Source: a virus. Taken from it: 64,000 nt of DNA. The notes under the pieces are model-generated. The model saw only the letters and a program-made list of their open reading frames with translations, was not told the origin of the DNA and did no database searches. The position numbers and the translations under genes were made by a program. This document shows positions 8,282 through 44,088 of the stretch, piece by piece. Each line of letters begins with the position of its first letter. Position 1 is the first letter of the stretch. The stretch covers positions 95,492 through 159,491 of IMG/VR virus record IMGVR_UViG_3300023174_006137; one strand, written 5' to 3'.

Positions 8282-8313
8282 ATAATATATATTACAAATA
8301 TAATATATAATTA

Positions 8314-9072
8314 ATGAAGTACATAACAATATCTATAAAAGAATTTTACAAGCTAAATGAATCTCTTATAAATATACAGAATGATATTGATAAAATTTAT
8401 GATAATTATTTCCGAGATGGTATTGAATATATTCAAAATTCAGACAAAATAGATTTATCTAAATTTAAAGTTGGCGAAATTAGTTCAGCGGATTTAACCG
8501 ACGAATTATGTAAAAAAGCACATAAAATAAATCCAATAACAATTTACATAAACAACGATAAAAATTTATATAATAATCATTACAATCCACTTAAAAAATT
8601 AATAAATTTAAGACCAAATAGAAATGCTATAGATTATAGTTTAGGTTTTAATACTATTTCTGAAGCTACTGAATCATTAGATTATGAACAGAAAGAAACT
8701 TTTATAAGGGAATTTAAAGAATCAACAATAAAAGGATCTATACATCACGAATTAGTTCATTGGATTGATGATAGTTTAAATAATAAGCATATAGAAAAAA
8801 TAATAAAAAAACAGTTAGATAACAAAAAATATATTAAAGATGCAAATTATAGAAACTTTGAAATACAATCACAAATTCACAATATAATTCAATTAAAAAA
8901 ACAAAATCAAGATATTTGGAATTATTTAAGTTTTGCAGAAATGATAAAATTATCACCTTCTTTAAGTACCGTTTTTAAAAATATGACTAATATTGATGGT
9001 AGAAATAAATGGCTTCGACAACTGAAAAGTAGATTATATAGAGAAGGATTACTAGGTAAAAATATGATATAA
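8314..9072 (+). CDS. Putative zincin (HExxH) metallopeptidase-like late protein
   Basis: HHELVH plus downstream FEIQS glutamate. Confidence 0.5.
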   Translation: MKYITISIKEFYKLNESLINIQNDIDKIYDNYFRDGIEYIQNSDKIDLSKFKVGEISSADLTDELCKKAHKINPITIYINNDKNLYNNHYNPLKKLINLRPNRNAIDYSLGFNTISEATESLDYEQKETFIREFKESTIKGSIHHELVHWIDDSLNNKHIEKIIKKQLDNKKYIKDANYRNFEIQSQIHNIIQLKKQNQDIWNYLSFAEMIKLSPSLSTVFKNMTNIDGRNKWLRQLKSRLYREGLLGKNMI

Positions 9073-11625: not shown

Positions 11626-11631
11626 ATGTAG

Positions 11632-11714
11632 TTGCCAAGACAGGACTCGAACCTGTATTTACTTCTCGTCCTCCGCTTTCAAAGAGCGGGATGCTACCAT
11701 TACACCACTTGGCA
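11632..11714 (-). tRNA. tRNA-Gln(UUG), long variable region
   Basis: CCGCT-CT TTG AA-AGCGG; canonical GGTTCGAGTCC. Confidence 0.85.
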
Positions 11715-11773: not shown

Positions 11774-11821
11774 TCAATCTGGTTTAAATAATTGTTGTTG
11801 TTGAGAAGTTAAAGTTTTCAT
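11774..11821 (-). promoter_or_regulatory. Leader peptide MKTLTSQQQQLFKPD (Gln-sensing attenuator)
   Basis: Four tandem CAA codons; 3' CAGATTGA is complementary to terminator arm TCAATCTG. Confidence 0.85.
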
Positions 11822-12700
11822 TTTTTTATAATAATTTATAAATTTTTCTATTTCAGTTTTTATATATTCTTTTCCTGCTTCGTTATTTATTGATTGCCAT
11901 TTTATTCTATAAATATTAAAATGTTTTAATAAATTTTTATCTCTTTCATTATCATGTTCAACTCTATATTCATGTTGTTTACCATCTATTTCTAAATCAA
12001 TATTTCCTTCTTTAATATAGAAATCTAAAAAATAATTTCCATTTCCTTCTATATTATATTCTTTTTTTATTATAGTTTTATTAGGCTCATATTTTATGCC
12101 ATTGTTTTCTAATACCATTTTGAAAAACTTTTCTGGATAACTTTCAATATTTCTTGATTGCCAACCTTTATGTGTTCCATTTTTTATTCTTTCTTTAACT
12201 GAATCTCTTAATTTATTTTTATATTCCTCGCTTGTAAATTGACACTTTTTACTACAATATTTTCGATTAATATTTTTTCCAGTATATGTTTTTTTACAAT
12301 TGGGACATTCTTTTATGTATTCCTCTTCATTATATTTTTTATTCCACGGAATATTATTTTTTAATGTATTAGATATTTTTTTACATCTTTCCTCATATTT
12401 TTCTTTATCAAAATTAGTATTATTTTTACCATGTTGATAATAAGAATTTGAACATGACGATGAACATGTTTTCTTACCATTTTCTGTTGTTTCAAATTCG
12501 TTAAAACAAATAGGACAAATAAGTTTAATTTTTTGGTATTTTCTATTTTTGTTTTTATTTTCAAAAATAGATTTATTAAATCCATTTTGTTCTAAAACTT
12601 CTGCTGCCTTTTTATTGCTTCGTCCATTAGAATAACCATATAATTTTATGGCTAAGTCATTAATGGAAAAACTTTCATTTATAATTTTAATGATATCCAT
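11774..12700 (-). CDS. Putative homing endonuclease (Zn fingers plus DUF559/Vsr-like PD-(D/E)xK domain), in frame with the Gln leader peptide
   Basis: CPIC..CS..C repeats, SYPE, Y.LDF, EIDGKQH, D..RD..L; true start MDIIKII after a TATATA motif. Confidence 0.7.
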   Translation of the reverse strand: MDIIKIINESFSINDLAIKLYGYSNGRSNKKAAEVLEQNGFNKSIFENKNKNRKYQKIKLICPICFNEFETTENGKKTCSSSCSNSYYQHGKNNTNFDKEKYEERCKKISNTLKNNIPWNKKYNEEEYIKECPNCKKTYTGKNINRKYCSKKCQFTSEEYKNKLRDSVKERIKNGTHKGWQSRNIESYPEKFFKMVLENNGIKYEPNKTIIKKEYNIEGNGNYFLDFYIKEGNIDLEIDGKQHEYRVEHDNERDKNLLKHFNIYRIKWQSINNEAGKEYIKTEIEKFINYYKKMKTLTSQQQQLFKPD

Positions 12701-12741
12701 AAGATATATATTAAAATTGTCGGAGAAAGTTTTTCCGAACC

Positions 12742-12820
12742 TGGTCGAGAAGGTGAGATTCGAACTCACGAGTTGTCTTGGTCCCAAACCAAGCCGGGTA
12801 CCTGACTCCCGAACTTCTCG
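12742..12820 (-). tRNA. tRNA-Pro(UGG), CCA encoded
   Basis: C1-G72; CTTGG-TT TGG GA-CCAAG. Confidence 0.85.
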
Positions 12821-12826
12821 TTTTTG

Positions 12827-12900
12827 CGGTCTGTACCGGGTACGATCCGGCAACCTTCCCCGTGACAGGGGGATATTGTATCCATTTCTACTAACAGACC
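12827..12900 (-). tRNA. tRNA-Asp(GUC)
   Basis: TCCCC-CT GTC AC-GGGGA; G73; T-loop ATCGTAC. Confidence 0.85.
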
Positions 12901-12908
12901 ATTTTTTG

Positions 12909-12986
12909 CAGTGACGACGGGACTCGAACCCGCAAACCTCCCGATAGACAGTCGGGCATTCTGACCTAAAATTGAACTACGCCACT
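12909..12986 (-). tRNA. tRNA-Asp(GUC)
   Basis: CCCGA-CT GTC TA-TCGGG; G73. Confidence 0.9.
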
Positions 12987-12992
12987 ATTTCG

Positions 12993-13077
12993 TCTGGGTG
13001 ACAGGGCTCGAACCTGCATAAGATGTTAATCATTCTCCTGTCCAAGAGGAGTCGGCTTCCATTGCCTTCACACCCAG
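12993..13077 (-). tRNA. tRNA-Pro(UGG), long variable region
   Basis: C1-G72, A73; CTCCT-CT TGG AC-AGGAG. Confidence 0.8.
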
Positions 13078-13322: not shown

Positions 13323-13376
13323 AATTTTTTTTTTAATTTTTACATATTAATTTGCATAATATAATATATAGTAAAT

Positions 13377-15260
13377 ATGGATAAAGTAATTCTTGATACT
13401 ACGAATAATGAAACAATTATTAAACCAGTTTATATCTATAAAGTTTTCAAAATAAAAGATATTGAAATACTTGGTAGAGGTGATACTGATAATTTAGATA
13501 TTTATTATCGTTTTTCACAAGATTATGGTAGAACAATTTCGGATTTTATTCTTTTCACAAAAGAAAATATTATTTCAGAAAGAATTAATCCAATTCGTTT
13601 TTTCCAAATTGAGTATTATTTAAGATATACCGGAACTTCTACCGCTACTATCTTTGATATAAATTTAGTTGGCGATTTCCAAAATGTATCATTAGACGGA
13701 CAAAAAAGTAATGTATATGGCATAAGAGAAAACTGCAATTGCCTTATTGCTGGTTTAATTTGTGACCCTTCAACTTTACCAGAAGGTATGCCACCAGGTG
13801 GAATATCAAGTATGTTAATGTCTAACTATAATACTGAATCGACTAATTTGCCTGCTTTAAATAGCGAACAAATTGCTAATTTATATAATCCATATCAACA
13901 AGCACAAGCACTTACTTTATTTAATAAAATGAGTAATGATGTTTCTAATTTATTTGGGCATGATGTTATTTATGTATTAACGGATCCAGATCAAAATGGA
14001 ACTGATTATACATTCCATGAATATACTATACAAAATTATATTTGTGATGCTAAATTAAAAGTAAATGTTGATAATAACCAATTTCCAGATAATACCGGTG
14101 CTTTAAATAATTTTGATTTATCTTTATTTGATAGTTTTGAAATTAATATAACAAAAGATGCTTTTAAAGCGGCTTTTGGTATTGAAAAAAGACCAGGTTT
14201 AAATGATGTTATATGGTTTTGTAATATAAATAAATTATATACTATTGAACATGCACAGGCAATAAGAAATTTTAATAATTATTCAATCTACTATAAAGTG
14301 ATACTTAAAAAATTCAATCAAAAAGCAAACATTATTGGAGCAACACAAGAAATACAAGATGTGCTGGATAATTTAACAAAAAATACCACATTAGAAGAAT
14401 TAATGGGGCTAGAGAATATGCAAGATAAAAAGGCAACCGCAAATAACGAACAATTAAGACCGGCAAATAAAGCACAAGAAACTTTAAGAGTTGATATTTA
14501 TTCAAATATAGAACAAGAAATTATACAAAATGCTTCAGTGACAGTTGCTAAAACTTGTTATGAAATGTCAACGGTTCAATTTAACGAACCAGGTGTTGTA
14601 TATAGAAACTTTAAATTTTTCTATCAAAAATCAGACAATATAGGTTTTAGTTGTTGGTTTAATATAAATAATTTAACTATGAACGATACTTACCATTTCT
14701 TTAATTATATGGATGTTTCAAATAATGGTTTTAAGTTTTATATGTTAGGAAATAGTATCTTTGTTAATCTTAACGGTGTAGCAAACGAATTTAGTTTAAT
14801 AGATGAAAATTGTAATAATGCTAATTTAGCAAGTAATGTTTTATCAGAAAATGTATGGTATGCTTTGGTAGTTAATATAAATCAAAGATTAAATGGTTTA
14901 GAGGTTTATTTATATAAGAGAAATGTTGATTACGAAGAAGATGCTGAATCATTATCGTCATCTAAATTAAAATTAGTAAACAAAGTAATTAAGGGTGTTG
15001 AACCAAGTATTTTAGATATATCACCAGATACTAATGCCAATATATTAGGTTCTGATATGAAAATCACTAATTTAAGATTGTTTAATGATGTTATACCAGA
15101 AGCACAACATAATAAAATGTTAAACTTATTCTTAATAGGTGCTGATTATAAATATGCCATATTTACAGATAATGCAAACCAAGATGCAAATATGCCATCT
15201 AATATAGATAGCAGAATAAATTATAATAAAATTAGAAGAGGAACTGGATTAGATAACTAA
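13377..15260 (+). CDS. Virion protein, T4 gp14 neck-protein-like central domain plus LamG-like C-terminus
   Basis: FD..L.D..EI.I...F...RP..NDVIWF...KLY.I pattern resembles gp14; late promoter motif upstream. Confidence 0.5.
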   Translation: MDKVILDTTNNETIIKPVYIYKVFKIKDIEILGRGDTDNLDIYYRFSQDYGRTISDFILFTKENIISERINPIRFFQIEYYLRYTGTSTATIFDINLVGDFQNVSLDGQKSNVYGIRENCNCLIAGLICDPSTLPEGMPPGGISSMLMSNYNTESTNLPALNSEQIANLYNPYQQAQALTLFNKMSNDVSNLFGHDVIYVLTDPDQNGTDYTFHEYTIQNYICDAKLKVNVDNNQFPDNTGALNNFDLSLFDSFEINITKDAFKAAFGIEKRPGLNDVIWFCNINKLYTIEHAQAIRNFNNYSIYYKVILKKFNQKANIIGATQEIQDVLDNLTKNTTLEELMGLENMQDKKATANNEQLRPANKAQETLRVDIYSNIEQEIIQNASVTVAKTCYEMSTVQFNEPGVVYRNFKFFYQKSDNIGFSCWFNINNLTMNDTYHFFNYMDVSNNGFKFYMLGNSIFVNLNGVANEFSLIDENCNNANLASNVLSENVWYALVVNINQRLNGLEVYLYKRNVDYEEDAESLSSSKLKLVNKVIKGVEPSILDISPDTNANILGSDMKITNLRLFNDVIPEAQHNKMLNLFLIGADYKYAIFTDNANQDANMPSNIDSRINYNKIRRGTGLDN

Positions 15261-16608: not shown

Positions 16609-16731
16609 AATTATATCATAATTATATAATGACATTTTTGTAAATTATTTTTTATGTAGGTTTAACTACTAACTATTATATGTATTTTTTATCAAAAATT
16701 TGGTTAGGCAACTATTTTAATATATAGGTTT

Positions 16732-17673
16732 ATGTGTTTCAATAGTAAAAAACATTTTATTAAAAACTTTAAGCAGTTTGAGAATAATTTACTAGATATA
16801 AAAGAAGAATTAGTTAATTTTCCTTTAAAAAAATTAATTTATATAATAAAGCAAAAAATTGAAGGAACTATTAAAGAAGGTGAAAATAAATATAATTTTG
16901 ATTTCTCACAAGAAAAATTTTTACCTATAAAGTTTAACCTTATTATTAATTATATAATCGAAGAAGATATTGATTATGGTGGCTATATCGATTACAACGA
17001 AATAAAAAGAGTTAAGTTTAATAATTTAAATTTACATATTGATATACAAGATAAAGAAATAGACTATACTTCTGTTTATTCAACAATAGGGCATGGATTA
17101 AAACATGTGTTTGATATATACCACAACGACCCTTACCAAGAAGTAAATAAAATGAAAATTATTTGGAAACTTCATGGTGATAATCAAAATAAGTATTTAA
17201 GAGAAATACTTTATTTGACATATTTAGCATTAGGTTATGAGTTAGAGGCAAGAAATAATGAACTATATAATAAGTTAAGATGGCTAAAAAGTTTTGATAG
17301 TTCTATGATTATGGACGAGTTTAAAAAAACATATGTATATAAATCTTTAATGGAATTAAAAAATTTTAATATTGATGAAATATTAAATAATGTAGATAAT
17401 AATGAATTAACTGAATTTCTAACAGAATACGCTAATAAAATCTATGATAGAGATATAGATACCCCTAAAAACTTTTTAGAAAGAATAAAAGGTTTCTTTA
17501 ATGCCGTTGGCGATGCTTATTTAAGCAAAGCAAAAGACATTTTAGATGAATTAATAATAGACAATAGACCTTATATGGAAACTAAAAAACACACATTTTT
17601 TTATGAATATCTTTATTTACTTAATTTAGAAAAAGAAATGGAAGAAATTATTGAAAAAATTAATTTAAATTAA
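16732..17673 (+). CDS. Zincin-like late protein (HGLKH variant), paralog of 23085..24023
   Basis: HGLKHVFD...YL....ELEAR aligns with HELFHLYE...YL....EINAR. Confidence 0.5.
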   Translation: MCFNSKKHFIKNFKQFENNLLDIKEELVNFPLKKLIYIIKQKIEGTIKEGENKYNFDFSQEKFLPIKFNLIINYIIEEDIDYGGYIDYNEIKRVKFNNLNLHIDIQDKEIDYTSVYSTIGHGLKHVFDIYHNDPYQEVNKMKIIWKLHGDNQNKYLREILYLTYLALGYELEARNNELYNKLRWLKSFDSSMIMDEFKKTYVYKSLMELKNFNIDEILNNVDNNELTEFLTEYANKIYDRDIDTPKNFLERIKGFFNAVGDAYLSKAKDILDELIIDNRPYMETKKHTFFYEYLYLLNLEKEMEEIIEKINLN

Positions 17674-17692
17674 ATTAATAAAAGGATAAAAT

Positions 17693-17722
17693 AAAAAACA
17701 AAGCAAAAATGCTTTGTTTTTT
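17693..17722. terminator. Bidirectional intrinsic terminator
   Basis: AAAAAACAAAGCA/TGCTTTGTTTTTT. Confidence 0.7.
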
Positions 17723-17725
17723 ATT

Positions 17726-17971
17726 TTAAATTGTTGGATATACAATCAAATCACCAGACTTAATCGCTTTGTTAACATACCTCAACAAGGTTATTGCCTT
17801 ATATTCTGCTTCAAATTTTGTTGTACCAACATCATCCGTGTCTGATAAATCTACAGGAAATAAATATGTTTTACTATTGGTAATAACTTTATACCATAAA
17901 CATTGACAACATGCATAAGCAAATTTTGCTTTAGTGTCTTTAACGACATCTAATACTTTAATCTTTTCCAT
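17726..17971 (-). CDS. Hypothetical phage protein
   Basis: 81 aa ORF, FPVD..D.G...F.A..KAI.L.RY..KA pattern. Confidence 0.55.
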   Translation of the reverse strand: MEKIKVLDVVKDTKAKFAYACCQCLWYKVITNSKTYLFPVDLSDTDDVGTTKFEAEYKAITLLRYVNKAIKSGDLIVYPTI

Positions 17972-18026: not shown

Positions 18027-18099
18027 TAGTTCCAACGAGATTCGAACTCGTATCATAATTTTAGGAGAATTATACCTTATCCTGTTAGGCTATGGAACC
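18027..18099 (-). tRNA. tRNA-Arg(CCU)
   Basis: TAATT-CT CCT AA-AATTA. Confidence 0.85.
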
Positions 18100-18105
18100 A
18101 TTTTG

Positions 18106-18191
18106 TACCGCTAGCAGGACTCGAACCTGCACTATCTTTACAGAAAACGGATTATGAGTCCGTCACAATTACCACATCTGCTCATAGCGGC
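18106..18191 (-). tRNA. tRNA-Met/Ile2(CAU), long variable region
   Basis: ACGGA-CT CAT AA-TCCGT; cognate leader has internal ATG codons, favouring Met. Confidence 0.75.
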
Positions 18192-18197
18192 ATATTT

Positions 18198-18476
18198 TTA
18201 TACTCTTTTACTTCTCCATTTAATAAACTTTTTCACATCAGGATGTTCTAAAAGTTTTTCCTTTGTATTATATGTTAAGCCCATTTCTTTTTCAGTTATG
18301 AACCGATGTATTTGCCCATGACAATAAAATTTACATATCCAAATACCATGATTTTTCAAATAATCTTTATCATAATTCTTTTTGAAGAACTTATTTGAAT
18401 GCAAAGTCCTTGGAATTAAATGATGAAAATTTAAATAATCATTTGTTGAGCCACACAATTCACATTTATCTATCAT
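18198..18476 (-). CDS. Small HNH-type nuclease-like protein
   Basis: CELCG..L.FHHLIP...C..CH.QIH. Confidence 0.7.
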   Translation of the reverse strand: MIDKCELCGSTNDYLNFHHLIPRTLHSNKFFKKNYDKDYLKNHGIWICKFYCHGQIHRFITEKEMGLTYNTKEKLLEHPDVKKFIKWRSKRV

Positions 18477-18660
18477 AATATATCATAATAATACCAAGTA
18501 TTATCATATTTTTCATTAACAATTTTTGTTATTTCATCTTTTTCCAATTCTTCATTAATAAAAAATGATTCATTTTTCAAATATTCTAAATCAAAATAAA
18601 CTACTATTTCAATCATAATTTTTTTTTTATTTTAATCAATATCTATACCTTTTTGAATTA

Positions 18661-18694
18661 CTAACTCCTGCGTATACCAATTCCGCCATATGAT
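18661..18694 (-). pseudogene. tRNA 5'-half remnant (Leu-like D-arm)
   Basis: TGGCGGAATTGGTATACGC with no 3' half. Confidence 0.45.
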
Positions 18695-18699
18695 AATCG

Positions 18700-18772
18700 T
18701 AGCTCTGATGGGAGTCGAACCCACACATTTCCGAGTTTGAATCGGTTGCCTCGCCAGTTGGGCTACAGAGCC
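18700..18772 (-). tRNA. tRNA-Leu(CAA), short variable loop
   Basis: CCGA-TT CAA AC-TCGG; A73; no extra arm. Confidence 0.75.
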
Positions 18773-18778
18773 ATTTTG

Positions 18779-18860
18779 TGCAGAAGAAGGGAGTCGAACC
18801 CTCACACCTTTCGGCACAGCAACCTCAATGCTGCGTGTTTACCAATTACACCACTTCTGC
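18779..18860 (-). tRNA. tRNA-Leu(GAG)
   Basis: CAGCA-TT GAG GT-TGCTG; class II arm GCC GAAA GGT. Confidence 0.9.
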
Positions 18861-18866
18861 AATTTG

Positions 18867-18942
18867 TAGCACTCCTGGGATTTGAACCCAGAACTCTCAG
18901 GTTCTAAAGCTGAGTCCTCTGCTCTTGTTGGGATAGAGTGCC
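18867..18942 (-). tRNA. tRNA-Leu(UAG), short variable loop
   Basis: TCAGC-TT TAG AA-CCTGA with C31xC39 mismatch; A73. Confidence 0.65.
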
Positions 18943-18947
18943 ATAAT

Positions 18948-18977
18948 AAAAAAATCCCGTCAAATTGACGGGATTTT
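18948..18977 (-). terminator. Attenuator terminator of the Leu/Met/Arg tRNA operon
   Basis: AAAATCCCGTCAA-T-TTGACGGGA-T7. Confidence 0.88.
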
Positions 18978-18999
18978 AAATAATCTTAAAAATAAGAAT

Positions 19000-19068
19000 T
19001 TACATAAGAATCCCGTCCAATGTTTCCATTAGATTAAGCAAATTCATATTTAGATTCCTATTTCTCAT
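19000..19068 (-). promoter_or_regulatory. Leader peptide MRNRNLNMNLLNLMETLDGILM (Leu/Met/Arg attenuator)
   Basis: Codons AGG, CTA, ATG, TTG, CTT, CTA, ATG; GACGGGATT is complementary to terminator AATCCCGTC. Confidence 0.88.
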
Positions 19069-19100
19069 ATTATTATATATTAATTTTTTATTTCTTTTTA

Positions 19101-19131
19101 CAAAAGTAAGAAAAAATTTTTATTTTACAAA
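19101..19131 (-). promoter_or_regulatory. Bacteroidota sigma70-type promoter of tRNA operon 2
   Basis: TTTG ... TACTTTTG. Confidence 0.7.
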
Positions 19132-19421: not shown

Positions 19422-19456
19422 GTAGAATTATTTTTTCTTATATATAAATTTTTTTG

Positions 19457-19545
19457 AGTGCAAAACAGGATTCGAACCTGTGATGTTGGAATTTACCAAG
19501 ACACTTTTGCAGAGTGCCGCTTTCGACCACTTAGACTACTTGCAC
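19457..19545 (-). tRNA. tRNA-Cys(GCA), long variable arm
   Basis: GCACT-CT GCA AA-AGTGT; U73. Confidence 0.8.
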
Positions 19546-20187: not shown

Positions 20188-20194
20188 ATTTTTG

Positions 20195-20281
20195 TGATCC
20201 TAACAGGATTCGAACCTGTGTTAACATTTACTGCCTCAGGCTTGTAAAACCTGCGCTCTAAACCAACTGAGCTATAGGATC
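20195..20281 (-). tRNA. tRNA-Val(UAC), long variable region
   Basis: CAGGT-TT TAC AA-GCCTG. Confidence 0.82.
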
Positions 20282-20602: not shown

Positions 20603-20704
20603 TTACACCTGTCGATTTAATCCCATACCAACTCTAATCACACATAACGTATTGTTATTTATGATTAAATTATTATTAATGGTATTTCTACAAATGTTTT
20701 TCAT
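20603..20704 (-). promoter_or_regulatory. Leader peptide MKNICRNTINNNLIINNNTLCVIRVGMGLNRQV (N/I/C/R/T/L/V attenuator)
   Basis: 23 consecutive codons drawn only from the operon's amino acids; GAGTT..TGGGATTA is complementary to terminator TAATCTCA-AACTC. Confidence 0.88.
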
Positions 20705-20791
20705 ATAGCTTATATATTTAAATTTAATTTTGTTTTTTTGTCTTATGGACTTTTTATTGTTTTATTTGCTTGTTTGTTTTTAATTATAATG

Positions 20792-22284: not shown

Positions 22285-23088
22285 ATGACAAACATAGATA
22301 TAATAGATAAAATAAAAAAGGAATACCCAAAAAATGGACTACAAAAAACTGCCAATATAATTGGTATTAGTTTATATACTTTAAAGAAAATAATTAAAAA
22401 AAATAATATTATTTTAGGAGAGAAGGAAAGAAGAGTGGAATTTTCCAATTTTGAAAAAATAAATAAAAAAGAAGTTGCTTATTTTTTAGGTTTCTTTTGG
22501 TCTGATGGCGCAATAAGCAGAGATGAAATTTGTATAGAGATAAAATATGATGATAGTAATTCTATTTTAGATATATTAAATAAATTCGGTAATTGGAGAG
22601 TTAACAATAGAGTTAGAAAACTCAAAGGCAAAGAATATAAACAATCTTGCATAAGAATTAATGATAAGAAAATTAAAAATTTTCTATTAGAAAATGATTA
22701 TGGCAATAAATCAACAACAACTCCAACAAAAATATTATCTCTTATGCCAAATGATTTACAGCCTTATTTTTTCAGGGGGCTTATAGATGGAGATGGTTGT
22801 TTTTGTTCTAAAAACAGAAGTTATTTTTCTATTACAGGAACAATTAATCAAGATTGGCATGAAATAGAAAATTTATTTAATTATTTAAATATTAATTATA
22901 AATTAACATTAAAAGAACGGAAAACAGGTAATTCAAGTTATGTAGTTATATCTAATAAAAAAGATATAACTACATTGGGAAATTATATTTATGGAGAAAA
23001 TTATGACAATATTGGACTTTATAGAAAATATAAAATATATATGGAGATAAAAAACAAACCAATATCAAAATATTCAAAATATAAATGA
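22285..23088 (+). CDS. Free-standing LAGLIDADG homing endonuclease
   Basis: YFLGFFWSDG and FFRGLIDGDG motifs. Confidence 0.85.
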   Translation: MTNIDIIDKIKKEYPKNGLQKTANIIGISLYTLKKIIKKNNIILGEKERRVEFSNFEKINKKEVAYFLGFFWSDGAISRDEICIEIKYDDSNSILDILNKFGNWRVNNRVRKLKGKEYKQSCIRINDKKIKNFLLENDYGNKSTTTPTKILSLMPNDLQPYFFRGLIDGDGCFCSKNRSYFSITGTINQDWHEIENLFNYLNINYKLTLKERKTGNSSYVVISNKKDITTLGNYIYGENYDNIGLYRKYKIYMEIKNKPISKYSKYK

Positions 23089-24023: not shown

Positions 24024-24050
24024 AAAGTCCAACTAATTAGTTGGACTTTC
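24024..24050. terminator. Bidirectional terminator
   Basis: AAAGTCCAACTAA/TTAGTTGGACTTT palindrome. Confidence 0.65.
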
Positions 24051-24953
24051 TAATAATGGTAAAATGGTTTCACACCATTTTTTAAATTCATCAAAATCAT
24101 TCTTTTTATATAAATCTATCATTCCTAATAGAGGATTACCATAGTGAGATATAGTATTTGGTTCTGCACCAAAAAGTATTACATCTTCTCTATTTTTTAT
24201 AGTCATTAATGGTGGTAAATCAAGCCTATCAAGTGTCCATCTTTCAATAACCAAATTAGGATTTTGTCTAGCTTGATGTTTTGCTGGAAGTTTTGCCAAT
24301 TCTTCAGTAGTAAATGGTTTTAAAACTCTTTTTCTCTGAATATATGTGCCTCTTTTGAAGAAAGCAGGATAATCATTCCAATTTACACCTTTTTGAAAAA
24401 GCATTTCTTGTTTATCTGAACCCGATTTTCCGTGTAATTCGTTATGAGAATAATAATGTTGTGCTGCCATGCTAATAGAATTTTTAGTAGCATCTATTTC
24501 ACGCCACAAAAAGGTATTAGCAGCTTCTTGAATTGTTGGAACATTAAATACTCTACAATCTAATCTTGGCATCAAATGTGTTTTTTCAGGTAGATATTTA
24601 GGCAATTCTCTATTAAAAAATACTGAAGCCATACCAGCTAAATCAGATATCATTTTAAATAATCTACCATCAAAATATATTTTTGATTCATATGAATCTG
24701 AATACCAAACTAAAGTTATTTCATCACTTTGAGTATAACCACAATTTGCATTAGTTTCTTTAACTAAATACTTAGTTGTTTCAACCATTAAATTTGATAA
24801 CCTCTCATCATAGGGCCTTTTTAGTCCTTTTGTAAATTTAGAAAATCCTTTACCATCTAATCTGGCTATTACAGGAATTCTTGGAAGCATACGAATGCCA
24901 CAAGTAGCATCTTCATACATTTTTATTCTATCCCCTAAAGTATCTTTTATCAT
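24033..24953 (-). CDS. thg1: Thg1-like tRNA(His) guanylyltransferase / 3'-5' polymerase
   Basis: ARLDGKGFSKFT, YTQSDEITL, DCRVF, WRE.DATKNSI, KQEML, WND.P..FKRG. Confidence 0.92.
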   Translation of the reverse strand: MIKDTLGDRIKMYEDATCGIRMLPRIPVIARLDGKGFSKFTKGLKRPYDERLSNLMVETTKYLVKETNANCGYTQSDEITLVWYSDSYESKIYFDGRLFKMISDLAGMASVFFNRELPKYLPEKTHLMPRLDCRVFNVPTIQEAANTFLWREIDATKNSISMAAQHYYSHNELHGKSGSDKQEMLFQKGVNWNDYPAFFKRGTYIQRKRVLKPFTTEELAKLPAKHQARQNPNLVIERWTLDRLDLPPLMTIKNREDVILFGAEPNTISHYGNPLLGMIDLYKKNDFDEFKKWCETILPLLESPTN

Positions 24954-25069
24954 GTTATGAATTTTTACAAAAATACGAAAAAAGAATTGAAAAAGCAAAA
25001 ATTTTTCTGACTTTTTCCAATATAGGTATTGGTAAAATTAATATATATTTTATTAAAAACAATACAAAT

Positions 25070-31379: not shown

Positions 31380-31485
31380 GAGTCAAAGCAGGAATCGAAC
31401 CTGCGATTGCTTTACCATACAGAGTGCCATTAGCCGTTAATCTCAACCTTTGGAGGTGCTTATGTTGCCACTACACTATTTGACT
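31380..31485 (-). ncRNA. Aberrant tRNA-like RNA (expanded centre, no clear anticodon stem)
   Basis: 7-bp acceptor AGTCAAA/TTTGACT, D-arm GTGT/ACAT, T-arm GCAGG TTCGATT CCTGC. Confidence 0.55.
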
Positions 31486-32053: not shown

Positions 32054-32126
32054 TGGAGAATGACGGTTACGATCCGACTACTTAGGTTTGCAAAACCCAT
32101 GTTTTACCAATTACAACTAATTCCCC
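32054..32126 (-). tRNA. tRNA-Ala(UGC)
   Basis: G3:U70; TGGGT-TT TGC AA-ACCTA; T-loop ATCGTAA. Confidence 0.85.
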
Positions 32127-32271: not shown

Positions 32272-32913
32272 TTTTTTAATAATTCTACCTTTTATCCATC
32301 CCATACTCAAATATTGATTTAAATCCATTTTTTTAATTTTTTTATTTCCAAATTCAAAATGATATATCCAACAAGTTCCATACTGTGAGTTTTTTTCTCC
32401 TTTTTGATTTTCTGAATTTTTTTCTCCTATTTTGATTTTTGTCTCTTCTTTATGCTTTTTGCCAGTCCAATTAGGAGGATTCTTCAATACACCTAATTCT
32501 CTGAGTTTTTTATTCTGTATAATCATTCTTTCTTTATTTCTTTTTATAAATTCAGGATTATTCCAGTTAATTTTATTCATAGAGATAGCCGCCTTTTTAT
32601 TTTTTTCTTTTCTTAAAATAATATTATTATTTATAGATTCAAAACAATCGCCACCTATAATTATGTTATAAACATCAGTTCTTTTTATAAACTCCTCATT
32701 AACTATTTCTCTTTCTTTCAAATATGCTTCATTTTCATCAGTAAATATGAATAATATTTCTTTTCTAAAATTTTCTATTCCATATTTTTGTATTGCTCTT
32801 TTTATATATTTTCCACTACCCATATATTCGTCATCTAAATTATTTGTAGAGTGTTTTCCTATATAAAATTTTCCATTTAATATATTTTCTATTTTGTAAA
32901 TTGTATGTAACAT
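32257..32913 (-). CDS. GIY-YIG (Seg-like) homing endonuclease with NUMOD3
   Basis: IYKIEN..NGKFYIGKH, Y.GSG, KYG.ENF..E, G.KH..ETK.KI; stop codon lies inside tRNA-Gly. Confidence 0.88.
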   Translation of the reverse strand: MLHTIYKIENILNGKFYIGKHSTNNLDDEYMGSGKYIKRAIQKYGIENFRKEILFIFTDENEAYLKEREIVNEEFIKRTDVYNIIIGGDCFESINNNIILRKEKNKKAAISMNKINWNNPEFIKRNKERMIIQNKKLRELGVLKNPPNWTGKKHKEETKIKIGEKNSENQKGEKNSQYGTCWIYHFEFGNKKIKKMDLNQYLSMGWIKGRIIKKVDNA

Positions 32914-32965
32914 AATTTTAAACTATTTTATTTATATATAAAATAGTTCGAGTCCTGTTACTCAG

Positions 32966-33435: not shown

Positions 33436-33528
33436 TGCCTCAGGTAGGACTCGAACCTACTTACTGCGTGCCAATACGACTATTTGTTAAAGCAGACTTG
33501 TTTTACAGACAAGTGCCGTTACTAAGGC
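33436..33528 (-). tRNA. D-armless tRNA-Tyr(GUA)-like RNA with oversized variable arm
   Basis: Acceptor GCCTTAG/CTGAGGC, 8-nt linker, CTTGT-CT GTA AA-ACAAG, ~36-nt extra arm, canonical T-arm. Confidence 0.65.
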
Positions 33529-40719: not shown

Positions 40720-40724
40720 ATTAG

Positions 40725-40811
40725 TGACTCCAGAAGGATTCGAACCCTCATAAAACATATACTGTCTCCCCGTTCGTAGCGGGGCGTTTTAATCCATTAA
40801 ACTATGGAGCC
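40725..40811 (-). tRNA. tRNA-Arg(ACG), long variable region
   Basis: CCCCG-CT ACG AA-CGGGG. Confidence 0.82.
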
Positions 40812-40818
40812 ATTTTAG

Positions 40819-41053
40819 TATTCAGAACGGGATTCGAACCCGCAAAGATTTCATAAATTATAACTTGGAAACCTGCTTCCTGAGTGTTTCCCAGTGCAAT
40901 CTGTTAACCTTGTGTTATAAACCCTCCACCCATTGGTCTTACAGCGGTTATTCACAACCATTCTTTGAATGCCTTTGGTAGTTAGTTAAAATCCCTCATT
41001 TTATGAGTATCCTTAGTGTTTTGGGACTGTTTTTCCTATTAAACTATCTGAAT
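40819..41053 (-). ncRNA. 235-nt tRNA-framed structured RNA
   Basis: Perfect acceptor ATTCAGA/TCTGAAT-A, D-arm GTTT/AAAC, T-arm GCGGG TTCGAAT CCCGT enclosing ~180 nt of multi-stem sequence. Confidence 0.65.
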
Positions 41054-41198: not shown

Positions 41199-41255
41199 TC
41201 ATCTTCGGATTTCGAAGTTAAAACTACTGCGACTAGAAGAAAATATTGTGTTCAT
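41199..41255 (-). promoter_or_regulatory. Leader peptide MNTIFSSSRSSFNFEIRR (Ser/Arg attenuator)
   Basis: TCT TCT AGT CGC AGT AGT; AAATCCGA is complementary to terminator TCGGATTT. Confidence 0.88.
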
Positions 41256-41299
41256 ATACTATATATTAGTTTTTTATTTTTTGTTTTTATTTATTTTTA

Positions 41300-42109: not shown

Positions 42110-42196
42110 TAATTTTGTTAAGCACTCACTACTAATTGGTGCTTAACTAACCTGTTTCTGTTTTCGTTTTATTTGTTTCATACAATAATTTTTTTG

Positions 42197-42284
42197 CGGC
42201 AGATTAGAGAGTTCAACTCTAACAACGGATGATTACGTTCTAGCAATTTTCAAGATTGTGTACCTCAGTCAACTGGGATCTGCC
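42197..42284 (-). tRNA. tRNA-Ser(UGA), atypical D/T arms
   Basis: CAAT-CT TGA AA-ATTG; long V-arm; G73. Confidence 0.62.
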
Positions 42285-42291
42285 ATTTCTG

Positions 42292-42375
42292 CGGAAGTTG
42301 ACGGACTCGAACCCTCACAGCTTTTACACCTTCACCGTTTTCAAAACGGCTAACTACTCCTAATTAGGAACTTCC
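42292..42375 (-). tRNA. tRNA-Ser(UGA), atypical D-arm
   Basis: GCCGT-TT TGA AA-ACGGT; long V-arm; G73. Confidence 0.72.
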
Positions 42376-42380
42376 AATTG

Positions 42381-42457
42381 CACGGGTTGTAGGATTTTCA
42401 CCATTTAAACATTAACTTCCTTGCCGGAAGGTGTCTTAAATTTTAGACGAAACCCGT
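42381..42457 (-). pseudogene. Degenerate tRNA-like element overlapping the HNH stop codon
   Basis: Acceptor ACGGGTT/AACCCGT and D-stem GTCT/AGAC present, but 5-nt anticodon loop and broken T-arm. Confidence 0.5.
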
Positions 42458-43315
42458 ATTTTTATATTGTTTTAACCATTTTCTTATTACAGCCTCACTT
42501 ACTCCAAATAATTTACCTGTTCCTGTATTTCCGTTTTCTTTAACAAGTTTCATTAATTCTTCATAAGAAGGTCTATTTTTCACTTTTCTTTGTTTTATAG
42601 AACTACATATTTTGCATAATTTGCTATCTTTTGATATAATTTTACCACAAAAACATTTTTTATGTGTTTTTTCATTTTTATATTCATCTAATTCTTTATC
42701 ATACAATCTTTTAGTTTTATTGCTCCCACAATTAGTTTCCAAGGTAGAATTGCAATTAGGACAAACTATTCTTAAATTTTCAAGACGATTATCATAAGCA
42801 TCACCATTTATATGATCAAGTATATGAACTATTTTAGAATCATTAAACCAATTTTCATCTTGTCCGCATATTTCACAAATTTTATTTTTTATACCTTCTT
42901 TATATAATTTATTTTTTATTACTTTTCTCGAAACAAAAGAATCTTTATTCAGTATATCATCCAAATTTAAAGAATTTTTTGGCTTATTGCCTAACTTAAA
43001 ACCAGATTCAAAATGCTCAATATCTATATTATATAATTTTATATATTTTTTAATTGTTTGAAAATTACCAGAACATCGTGGTGATAAACCTAATTTTATT
43101 ATACATTCTGTATAACTTTTACACTCTTCAACTAATTTTTCAAATTCTTCTTTATTTTCATAAATATATGTTCTTTTTAATTTCAATTTTTTTGCCATTT
43201 CTTGACATGCTCTTTTTGTTCTACCAATCATATTGGCACAATAATCAGCACCCATTTTTGGAAAAAAATCACATAATAACTCTTTTTCTTTTTCTAACCA
43301 TTCATTCGAACTCAT
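42443..43315 (-). CDS. HNH homing endonuclease
   Basis: CEICG..W, LDHINGD..DNRLENLRIVCPNC, C-terminal HTH (GVSE..IRKW). Confidence 0.88.
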   Translation of the reverse strand: MSSNEWLEKEKELLCDFFPKMGADYCANMIGRTKRACQEMAKKLKLKRTYIYENKEEFEKLVEECKSYTECIIKLGLSPRCSGNFQTIKKYIKLYNIDIEHFESGFKLGNKPKNSLNLDDILNKDSFVSRKVIKNKLYKEGIKNKICEICGQDENWFNDSKIVHILDHINGDAYDNRLENLRIVCPNCNSTLETNCGSNKTKRLYDKELDEYKNEKTHKKCFCGKIISKDSKLCKICSSIKQRKVKNRPSYEELMKLVKENGNTGTGKLFGVSEAVIRKWLKQYKNTGFV

Positions 43316-43515: not shown

Positions 43516-43521
43516 ATTTAG

Positions 43522-43612
43522 GGCGATATGTGGGATTCAAACCCACGGTGTTTGATACAATCTCATTCAGGGTCACAGCCTGATTCCTTCGTTCACTCGG
43601 ACCAATACCGCC
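43522..43612 (-). tRNA. tRNA-His(GUG), long variable region, G-1 encoded
   Basis: TCAGG-CT GTG AC-CCTGA; G-1:C73. Confidence 0.78.
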
Positions 43613-43903: not shown

Positions 43904-43952
43904 AAAATACTTTTTTAAAATTATTATTGTTTTTGTTTTTATTTTTATTTAG

Positions 43953-44024
43953 TAGCGGGGAGTGGACTTGAACCACTGATCTCTGGGTTATGAGCCCAGC
44001 AAGATGCCGCTTCTCTACCCCGCA
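43953..44024 (-). tRNA. Initiator tRNA-fMet(CAU)
   Basis: CTGGG-CT CAT AA-CCCAG (three G-C pairs); 1:72 mismatch. Confidence 0.88.
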
Positions 44025-44057
44025 GTATGTCTTTTTTATTTGTTTTTTATTATAAAG

Positions 44058-44088
44058 CAAAAGTAAGAAAAAGTTTTTGATTTACAAA
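44058..44088 (-). promoter_or_regulatory. Bacteroidota sigma70-type promoter of tRNA operon 6 (second copy at 44142-44172)
   Basis: TTTG ... TACTTTTG. Confidence 0.7.

Follow-up and report, generated by a model that had tools for sequence, protein, structure and literature searches.

A group of five transfer RNA (tRNA) genes in a huge phage is preceded by a short open reading frame (ORF) and a terminator hairpin, which together probably form a multivalent leader-peptide transcription attenuator: transcription of tRNA-Leu(UAG, GAG, CAA), tRNA-Met and tRNA-Arg(CCU) would depend on the speed at which their codons are decoded. The element lies in the 3' 64 kb of the IMG/VR record IMGVR_UViG_3300023174_006137 (159,491 base pairs, bp), i.e. 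in record positions 95,492 to 159,491. This stretch of 64,000 nucleotides (nt) is the window of our analysis, and all coordinates without a prefix are window positions. The element is real, conserved and non-random; its sequence elements, the codon match between leader and array, the pairing potential with its conservation, and the co-variation of leader and array are direct observations. The phage under study is called G000 below, and other labels with G or L and a number denote related genomes, loci or contigs. CheckV estimated the record to be 22% complete, thus the phage must be very large. Its G+C content is 26%. The best-matching public run is a lake-water metagenome, and no public RNA run was listed as containing the element. 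The elements listed by an earlier, sequence-based annotation (the original prediction) were all found where it had placed them, on the minus strand:

19131..19101, minus: Bacteroidota-type promoter-like site, TTTG-N19-TActTTTG (pattern match)
19066..19081, minus: gene-start motif AATATATA-N5-ATG, ending in the leader start codon
19068..19000, minus: leader ORF of 22 codons plus TAA, MRNRNLNMNLLNLMETLDGILM (ORF list, translation)
19027..19059, minus: control block, leader codons 4-14, AGG AAT CTA AAT ATG AAT TTG CTT AAT CTA ATG
18979..19074, minus: 1:2 anti-antiterminator hairpin, the 5' half of the leader with its 3' half and the spacer
19009..19017, minus: segment 2, the antiterminator strand GACGGGAUU, codons 18-20, pairing with 18975..18967
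18966..18977, minus: segment 3, the 5' arm of the terminator, AAAAUCCCGUCA, common to antiterminator and terminator
18944..18962, minus: segment 4, the 3' arm of the terminator, UGACGGGAUUUU, with the U-run
18977..18951, minus: terminator hairpin, stem of 12 bp (5 of them G-C) and loop of 3 nt, with a T-run behind it (U-run to 18944)

The unit behind the terminator consists of the following genes (aa, amino acids), and all five of its tRNAs scored above the Rfam tRNA gathering score:

18942-18866, minus: tRNA-Leu(UAG), starting just past the T-run (ARAGORN, Rfam)
18860-18778, minus: tRNA-Leu(GAG) (ARAGORN, Rfam)
18772-18699, minus: tRNA-Leu(CAA), only 74 nt (ARAGORN, Rfam)
18616..18473, minus: 47-aa ORF between the Leu(CAA) and Met(CAU) tRNAs
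18476..18198, minus: 92-aa ORF, weakly HNH-like (phrog_740 HNH endonuclease, E = 0.0012)
18191-18105, minus: tRNA(CAU), elongator type, 87 nt, with a stem-loop variable arm, probably Met (ARAGORN, Rfam)
18099-18026, minus: tRNA-Arg(CCU) (ARAGORN, Rfam)
17971..17726, minus: conserved 81-aa ORF
17728..17687, minus: strong terminator closing the unit

No terminator was predicted inside the array, from Leu(UAG) to Arg(CCU) and including the stretch with the small ORFs, thus by default the five tRNAs and the ORFs would be one transcription unit.

The leader reads ATG AGA AAT AGG AAT CTA AAT ATG AAT TTG CTT AAT CTA ATG GAA ACA TTG GAC GGG ATT CTT ATG TAA. Each of the five downstream anticodons has its cognate codon inside codons 4-14 (AGG-CCU, CTA-UAG, ATG-CAU, TTG-CAA and CTT-GAG), which agrees with the set of controlled tRNAs named by the original prediction, Leu(UAG, GAG, CAA), Met(CAU) and Arg(CCU). 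The interleaving of the control codons with Asn codons, also noticed earlier, was confirmed: AAT stands at codons 3, 5, 7, 9 and 12. Cognate codons make up 10 of the 21 non-start codons of the leader, compared with 4.7% in the long ORFs of the phage. The binomial probability of this enrichment (1e-8) overstates its significance, as non-genic frames differ in composition; by empirical rank the leader is second among 854 short ATG-initiated ORFs. All five codon classes within codons 2-14 were found in two of the 1,285 ATG-ORFs of the genome, one of them being the leader. The choice among synonymous codons is also informative. TTA, which accounts for 67% of the Leu codons in the genes of the phage, is absent from the six Leu codons of the leader, whereas the next leader, which precedes an array starting with tRNA-Leu(UAA), has TTA for all three of its Leu codons. 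In these respects the leader shows the regulatory-codon hallmark of leader-peptide attenuators, a short 5' ORF with codons matching the products of the operon.

The same layout was found before seven other tRNA groups of the window, each with its own leader:

MKTLTSQQQQLFKPD, before three tRNA-Gln genes
...PQQQPDQDPD..., before Pro/Asp tRNAs
...AYEGAYGYEG..., before Tyr/Glu/Gly tRNAs
...FSSSRSS..., before Ser/Arg tRNAs
MKQIKRKQKQVS, before a Lys tRNA
MKHFSSHKHSFKFWF..., before His/Trp/Phe tRNAs
a leader of 33 codons, before an array of 13 tRNAs

For the eight leaders of the window, the true assignment of leaders to arrays is the single best of the 40,320 permutations. We also made a scan that was blind to codons, in which a terminator had to lie at most 60 nt upstream of a tRNA gene, and the longest ATG-ORF of at least 10 codons had to end 15-45 nt before the terminator. 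It yielded 19 dereplicated units from this and other, diverse huge phages. The sum of the matches between leaders and their own arrays was 8.61, as compared with 4.1 +/- 0.58 after shuffling, and none of 20,000 shuffles reached the observed value. The sibling units, in the same phage as well as in other huge phages, share the layout, the promoter type and the position of the ORF stop 22-35 nt before the terminator, and as here, each leader is enriched in the codons of its own array. The unit studied here differs from its siblings in three respects. It would sense only minor codons of the phage (non-TTA Leu codons, AGG and ATG). The 13-tRNA array and an 86-aa ORF immediately precede it, with no terminator between, thus read-through may be gated as well. 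Its leader is joined with that of the 13-tRNA array into a composite leader in relatives that are more distant.

An intrinsic terminator separates the leader ORF from the first regulated gene: the U-run ends at 18944 and the first tRNA starts at 18942. The spacer between the leader stop and the terminator hairpin is 22 nt. The nonamer GACGGGATT occurs three times in the window, compared with an expectation of 0.18: in the leader (19017..19009), in the 3' arm of the terminator (18961..18953), and as the complement in the 5' arm. This bears out the earlier proposal of a 9-nt antiterminator which is identical to the 3' arm of the terminator and would compete with it for the 5' arm. The calculated energies of the isolated helices were -22.9 kcal/mol for 1:2, -17.8 kcal/mol for the 2:3 antiterminator (19017..18967) and -15.5 kcal/mol for the 3:4 terminator, and this predicted order (1:2 > 2:3 > 3:4) is the hierarchy expected of an attenuator. 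In the free leader the 1:2 hairpin is the minimum-energy structure.

To approximate the situation during transcription, we folded the transcript as it is before the 3' arm of the terminator has been made, and represented the ribosome by an assumed footprint, unpaired from -15 to +12 nt around the first base of the A site. In these nascent folds of G000 the probability (P) of the antiterminator was 0.86-0.99 when the A site was at codons 2-14, and 0.00 at codons 15-23, thus the last control codon, AUG14, is also the last permissive A-site position. The switch window was the same in the five homologues described below, and the 9-bp core of the antiterminator pairs in all six sequences. Computationally, one strand of the antiterminator also belongs to the terminator, and its other, upstream strand can be covered by a ribosome that has reached the end of the ORF.

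Translation of the leader, termination, read-through and the sensed signal are what we infer from these features, and the proposed mechanism can be outlined as follows. Transcription would start at the host-type promoter (19131..19101), and may also arrive as read-through from the upstream 13-tRNA array. Ribosomes would translate the 22-codon leader. If matching aminoacyl-tRNAs are scarce, decoding of AGG, CUA, AUG, UUG or CUU would be slow, and the ribosome would wait within codons 2-14. Segment 2 (GACGGGAUU) would then be left free to pair with the 5' arm of the terminator as soon as this is made, the terminator would not form, and the polymerase would go on to transcribe tRNA-Leu(UAG, GAG, CAA), the two small ORFs, tRNA-Met(CAU), tRNA-Arg(CCU) and the 81-aa ORF. 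If decoding is fast, a ribosome at codons 15-23 or at the stop would mask segment 2, allowing the terminator to form. With no ribosome loaded, the leader would fold into the 1:2 hairpin, and the terminator would form as well. Terminated transcripts are predicted to end at about 18944-18950. The tRNA products would speed up translation of the leader, and this would amount to negative feedback on decoding capacity.

Relatives of the element were found via a Thg1-like gene 5 kb upstream and by scanning metagenome contigs with a degenerate leader pattern. Besides G000, five homologues of the leader were identified (G005/L012, L109, L113, L116 and L118). In viral contigs the degenerate pattern detected only G005, and the exact architecture GACGGGATT...AATCCCGTC...GACGGGATT was not found there; the search for relatives via the neighbouring 313-aa ORF did not find any either. 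DNA contigs of four freshwater/sediment runs yielded only fragments, among them one contig which carried the leader and the terminator unchanged, with a 20-nt insertion in the 5' untranslated region. The frame, the length and the stop position of the leader are the same in all six homologues, with zero indels. Codons 5-14 are invariant except for the third base of codon 11, and variation is seen at the cognate codons that lie beyond the permissive window (codon 17 TTG/TTA, codon 21 CTT/TCT, codon 22 ATG/ATA). ATA does not occur at codons 2-14 in any of the six. Three pairs of the terminator changed on both sides across the homologues, and the observed score was reached by one of 500 shuffles. 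The 9-bp 2:3 helix is paired in all 54 cells of the six-homologue alignment, with one double change and two single changes. G000 has a specific three-way change at the same position (A to G in the leader, T to C in the 5' arm, A to G in the 3' arm), by which both pairings are kept. In the leader it converts AGG to GGG, i.e. Arg to Gly, and since this compensating change is non-synonymous, the constraint appears to act on the RNA and not on the peptide.

Leader codons and tRNA content change together across the relatives, but the match is imperfect. AGG is present at codon 4 in G000, L116 and L118, and the units of all three hold tRNA-Arg(CCU). In G005 codon 4 is ATC, a two-base difference, and its 190-kb record, with 46 tRNAs, has none of the Arg(CCU) type. 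The contigs of L109 and L113 stop too soon for this comparison. L009 and G002, which are more distant, have their Leu/Met tRNAs in one long array together with Ile/Val/Asn/Thr/Cys tRNAs, preceded by a single composite leader (MRTMNLNITNLNLTMVVNNTLCIRT... in L009, MTTMNLNMNMNLTVVLNTLCIRR... in G002), and each of these leaders joins the codon sets which are split between two leaders in G000. In L113 (1420-1716, minus) the attenuator lies about 80 nt past a tRNA-Cys and has no promoter of its own, thus it would be an internal gate within one long array. As there is no terminator between the upstream array and the leader in G000 either, serial gating is possible.

Several observations weigh against the proposed attenuator. 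Part of the leader does not fit: the five AAT codons, AGA, GAA, ACA and other leader codons are not decoded by the downstream tRNAs, and two thirds of the leader codons could be decoded by the 13 tRNAs of the upstream array, a set that serves 40% of all codon usage. In the DNA available, the units of L118 and L116 lack a CAU tRNA and that of L116 lacks Leu-CAA, both leaders nevertheless retain ATG and TTG. The covariation of the 2:3 helix was not significant with six close homologues (the score was reached by 90 of 500 shuffles). P(2:3) without a ribosome was 0.53 in G000 and 0.90 in L116, as opposed to 0.01-0.14 in the other four homologues, thus the untranslated default is not cleanly 'terminate'. 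It must also be noted that the comparison of folds with and without a ribosome, suggested by the original prediction, gave a divided answer. The nascent folds switch at codon 14/15, as anticipated, but in full-length equilibrium folds with the footprint the terminator prevailed at every position (P of about 0.8-0.9) but codon 9, where P was 0.49, and a terminator forming regardless of the position of the ribosome is literally the outcome that had been named as contrary. The switch thus depends on the folding order during transcription and on the assumed footprint. Classical attenuators are understood to work in the same kinetic regime, through folding order during transcription. We do not take the equilibrium folds as the appropriate test, but count their outcome among the points against the model.

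Initiation of translation is a further weak point, as the leader has no Shine-Dalgarno sequence and its initiation is deduced from the motif AATATATA. This motif has 23 matches in the window versus 5 expected, and it is located 3-8 nt 5' of the ATG in many genuine genes and in three leaders (examples are at 8302-8316(+), 13363-13379(+), 16719-16734(+), 19066-19081(-), 20702-20718(-) and 41253-41267(-)). In the whole genome the combination AATATATA-N5-ATG occurs 38 times; 23 of these begin ORFs of at least 60 codons (15% for all ATGs) and three begin leaders, including this one. It could be a translation-initiation signal for a host that does not use Shine-Dalgarno sequences, or alternatively, a phage-specific promoter yielding nearly leaderless mRNAs.

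Among the other explanations, the one that fares best is a general sensor of translation status, in which the codon content is of minor importance and the switch is flipped whenever ribosomes slow down, be it through host shut-off, a defence aimed at ribosomes or a lack of initiation. By its geometry the switch would respond to a ribosome halted anywhere within codons 2-14, also on the non-cognate AAT codons, and the ATG and TTG codons kept by L116 and L118 without matching tRNA genes in the DNA available would be easier to understand in this way. We nevertheless consider it unlikely, because the choice of codons is array-specific: TTA is avoided here and used next door, AGG occurs only where tRNA-Arg(CCU) is present, and in the set of 19 units each leader matches its own array and not the others.

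It is very improbable that the terminator merely ends the upstream unit (the 13-tRNA array and the 86-aa ORF) or sets a fixed level of read-through, the short ORF being a chance or micropeptide frame without a role in sensing. Codon-rich short ORFs do arise by chance in an AT-rich genome, where the leader ranks second and not first, and the terminator dominates the equilibrium folds. However, none of the other short ORFs with high scores is followed by a terminator or a tRNA, and three of these four are out-of-frame stretches within long genes. The conservation of the frame and stop of the ORF and the non-synonymous compensating change, with the RNA-level constraint it points to, do not fit this explanation, nor does the occurrence of the same layout with many unrelated leaders. 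Moreover, the promoter-like site is upstream of the terminator, and nothing resembling a promoter was found in the few bases that separate the T-run from the first tRNA. The pattern TTTG-N17-22-TAnnTTTG has 21 matches in the window versus 6.7 expected, and more of these precede sibling leaders (13322, 20822, 33756 and 41329). A promoter-like site also stands directly before an initiator-like tRNA(CAU) at 43952-44088 (minus), which has a U1-U72 mismatch and GGG:CCC in the anticodon stem; there is neither a leader ORF nor a terminator between them, and a sensor based on elongation would be unable to report on an initiator tRNA.

Antitermination without translation, with the antiterminator stabilised by a protein of phage or host that binds the leader RNA, or by a tRNA in the manner of T-boxes, seems to us equally improbable. 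In its favour, the leader is strongly structured (z = -5.2), Bacteroidota do without strong Shine-Dalgarno-led initiation, and transcription-translation coupling has been little studied in them. On the other hand, the leader has a single open frame with the cognate triplets in that frame, and a binding-site model leaves unexplained why leader codons track anticodons in unrelated leaders. Rfam searches identified no family at gathering score for the leader/terminator element, and no leader family or T-box at gathering score anywhere in the window. The T-box model (RF00230) gave no match to the element even at E <= 1, and the covariance models Leu_leader, Phe_leader, Trp_leader, His_leader and Thr_leader gave none at gathering score. 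The only weak matches of the element were to leader-peptide attenuators (Phe_leader 26.5 bits vs. a threshold of 55, E = 0.11; Trp_leader 19.4 vs. 41, E = 0.82) and terminator-like elements.

Beyond the single element, we propose, more tentatively and as a possibility that we would rate below even chances, that huge phages replace tRNAs on demand by means of a regulatory circuit. In front of every tRNA operon, a translated 'codon test strip' would detect a codon-specific failure of decoding, to which the circuit would respond with exactly the matching phage tRNAs, and the strips would be modular, their codon lists being re-partitioned as arrays split, fuse, gain or lose tRNAs. The failure of decoding may be caused by a loss of host tRNAs to anticodon nucleases or other tRNA-targeting defences, or by the phage's own shut-off of the host. 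The purpose of phage tRNA genes is debated: they have been proposed to serve codon compensation, to replace host tRNAs that have been degraded, or to evade defences which cleave tRNAs (PMC10264068, PMC11555353, PMC11464382). If the attenuator reading is correct, the phage treats its tRNA supply as a regulated quantity, and the debate becomes a testable question, namely which condition flips the switch. Leader-peptide attenuation would also be extended to a non-coding RNA product, to a virus, and to expression signals of the Bacteroidota type. A replacement circuit, if it exists, would be a new sensory logic in the conflict between virus and host over the translation apparatus, spread across many uncultivated lineages of huge phages. 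As for practical use, the leaders could help to annotate tRNA transcription units in metagenomic phages, and could serve as compact codon-specific sensors of translation.

The identity of the tRNA(CAU) of the unit (18191-18105) deserves a comment. The original prediction took the internal ATG codons of the leader as an argument for Met rather than Ile2. The tRNA is 93% identical to its G005 copy and its positions 1 and 72 are paired (G-U), which makes it an elongator type. The phage encodes its own tRNA-Ile(UAU) for ATA, a codon which, as mentioned above, the permissive windows of the homologues lack. These observations favour Met without proving it. The argument partly assumes the attenuator model, two relatives keep ATG without a CAU tRNA in the DNA available for their units, and comparison of the acceptor stem with those of the Ile tRNAs of the phage did not separate Met from Ile2.

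The protein products of the unit gave few clues. Pfam had no match for the 47-, 81- and 92-aa ORFs of the unit, nor for the 86-aa ORF upstream. The 92-aa ORF has a homologue in L118 and none in G005. The 81-aa protein belongs to phrog_20427, a family of unknown function in PHROGs, and its AlphaFold model (predicted local distance difference test, pLDDT, 94) had no significant fold match in the PDB. Its homologues follow the array in G005, L009, G002 and L118 (L012:18163-18423, L009:14591-14860, L025:10450-10731 and L118:9496-9750). In about a dozen of 80 related loci the homologues adjoin or sit inside tRNA arrays; most of the other loci are without tRNA genes. In the 476-kb record G002 the merged array ends with tRNA-Leu(CAA); immediately behind it come the small conserved ORF and then a 432-aa ORF (L025:10695-11993) which resembles a class-I aminoacyl-tRNA synthetase (aaRS), has HVGH and KMSKT motifs, and is possibly a truncated leucyl-tRNA synthetase.

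In the whole window ARAGORN identified 39 tRNA genes, every one on the minus strand, and Rfam added four (12909-12986, 31380-31485, 32054-32126 and 33436-33528, minus). Two more tRNA-like stretches with Ser(UGA)-like anticodon loops, called by neither program, are found at about 42.2-42.4 kb (42190-42420, minus), and a stretch of about 235 nt with tRNA-like ends (40815-41050, minus) could be a tRNA gene split by a long insert. Many of the Met, Gln, Pro, Cys, Val, His and Arg tRNAs, which belong to families normally having a short variable loop, are 84-91 nt long (18105-18191, 11631-11714, 12992-13077, 19456-19545, 20194-20281, 43521-43611, 40724-40811), and often a long and a normal copy stand side by side. 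The Thg1-like tRNA-His guanylyltransferase gene (24033-24998, minus; Pfam PF04446, E = 9e-28) is located among the tRNA arrays and is kept in related huge phages with 46-77% identity. ORFs resembling homing endonucleases of the HNH, LAGLIDADG and GIY-YIG types are scattered between the tRNA genes (18198-18476, 11774-12853, 22285-23088, 32280-32920, 42443-43315), and their presence varies among close relatives. LAGLIDADG was assigned by a Pfam match and the 92-aa HNH ORF by its weak PHROGs match; the others were assigned by eye from the sequence.

It is instructive to compare the element with known attenuators. The leaders of ilvGMEDA (Ile/Val/Leu) and thr (Thr/Ile), as well as trpL, hisL, pheL and leuL, have a short translated leader with regulatory codons, of several kinds in the multivalent ones, as predicted here. 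They also have the alternative 1:2, 2:3 and 3:4 pairings; an intrinsic terminator precedes their first gene, and the position of the stop codon allows a ribosome that terminates there to cover segment 2. These features are predicted for the phage element as well, the 1:2 pairing less uniformly across the homologues. In classical attenuators the control codons are cognate to the end product of the operon (PMC1183508). The enterobacterial leaders control biosynthetic enzymes, whereas here the targets would be tRNA genes, and the product is the adaptor whose supply would be sensed. The unit, with its five tRNAs, small ORFs and 81-aa ORF, thus falls outside the classical scope of amino-acid biosynthesis or aaRS genes. 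Further differences are that the element is viral, has promoter signals of the Bacteroidota type and no Shine-Dalgarno sequence, that its control codons are single and interleaved with AAT instead of forming runs, and that no Rfam leader family matches it at threshold.

By target, the nearest case is the pheM leader of the E. coli pheST operon, where a leader peptide with cognate codons controls a component of the translation apparatus. In pheST this component is a synthetase; in the phage the tRNAs themselves would be controlled, with five anticodons and three amino acids under one switch. T-box riboswitches, like this putative attenuator, sense the state of a specific tRNA and act on transcription through competing terminator and antiterminator helices. 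In a T-box, however, the specifier codon and the T-box sequence make direct contact with the uncharged tRNA, no ribosome is needed, and the genes controlled are mostly aaRS or amino-acid genes, whereas here the specificity would reside in translated codons.

A survey published in 2010 stated that before its own finding in Firmicutes no leader-peptide attenuators were known outside Proteobacteria and Actinobacteria (PMC2965389). In mycobacteria, cysteine-responsive attenuators consisting of leaderless polycysteine short ORFs have been described (bioRxiv 10.1101/834739). These resemble the phage element in using a short 5' ORF on a polycistronic transcript as an amino-acid- or codon-responsive attenuator outside the enterobacterial set, and differ from it in host group and in having protein-coding targets. 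Our full-text literature search found no description of leader-peptide (trp-operon-style) attenuation of tRNA genes, and the paper on phage tRNAs in counter-defence (PMC10264068) makes no mention of it. What is new relative to the known attenuators is the regulated product, which is tRNA, the viral owner, the host-type signals, and the single control codons interleaved with others.

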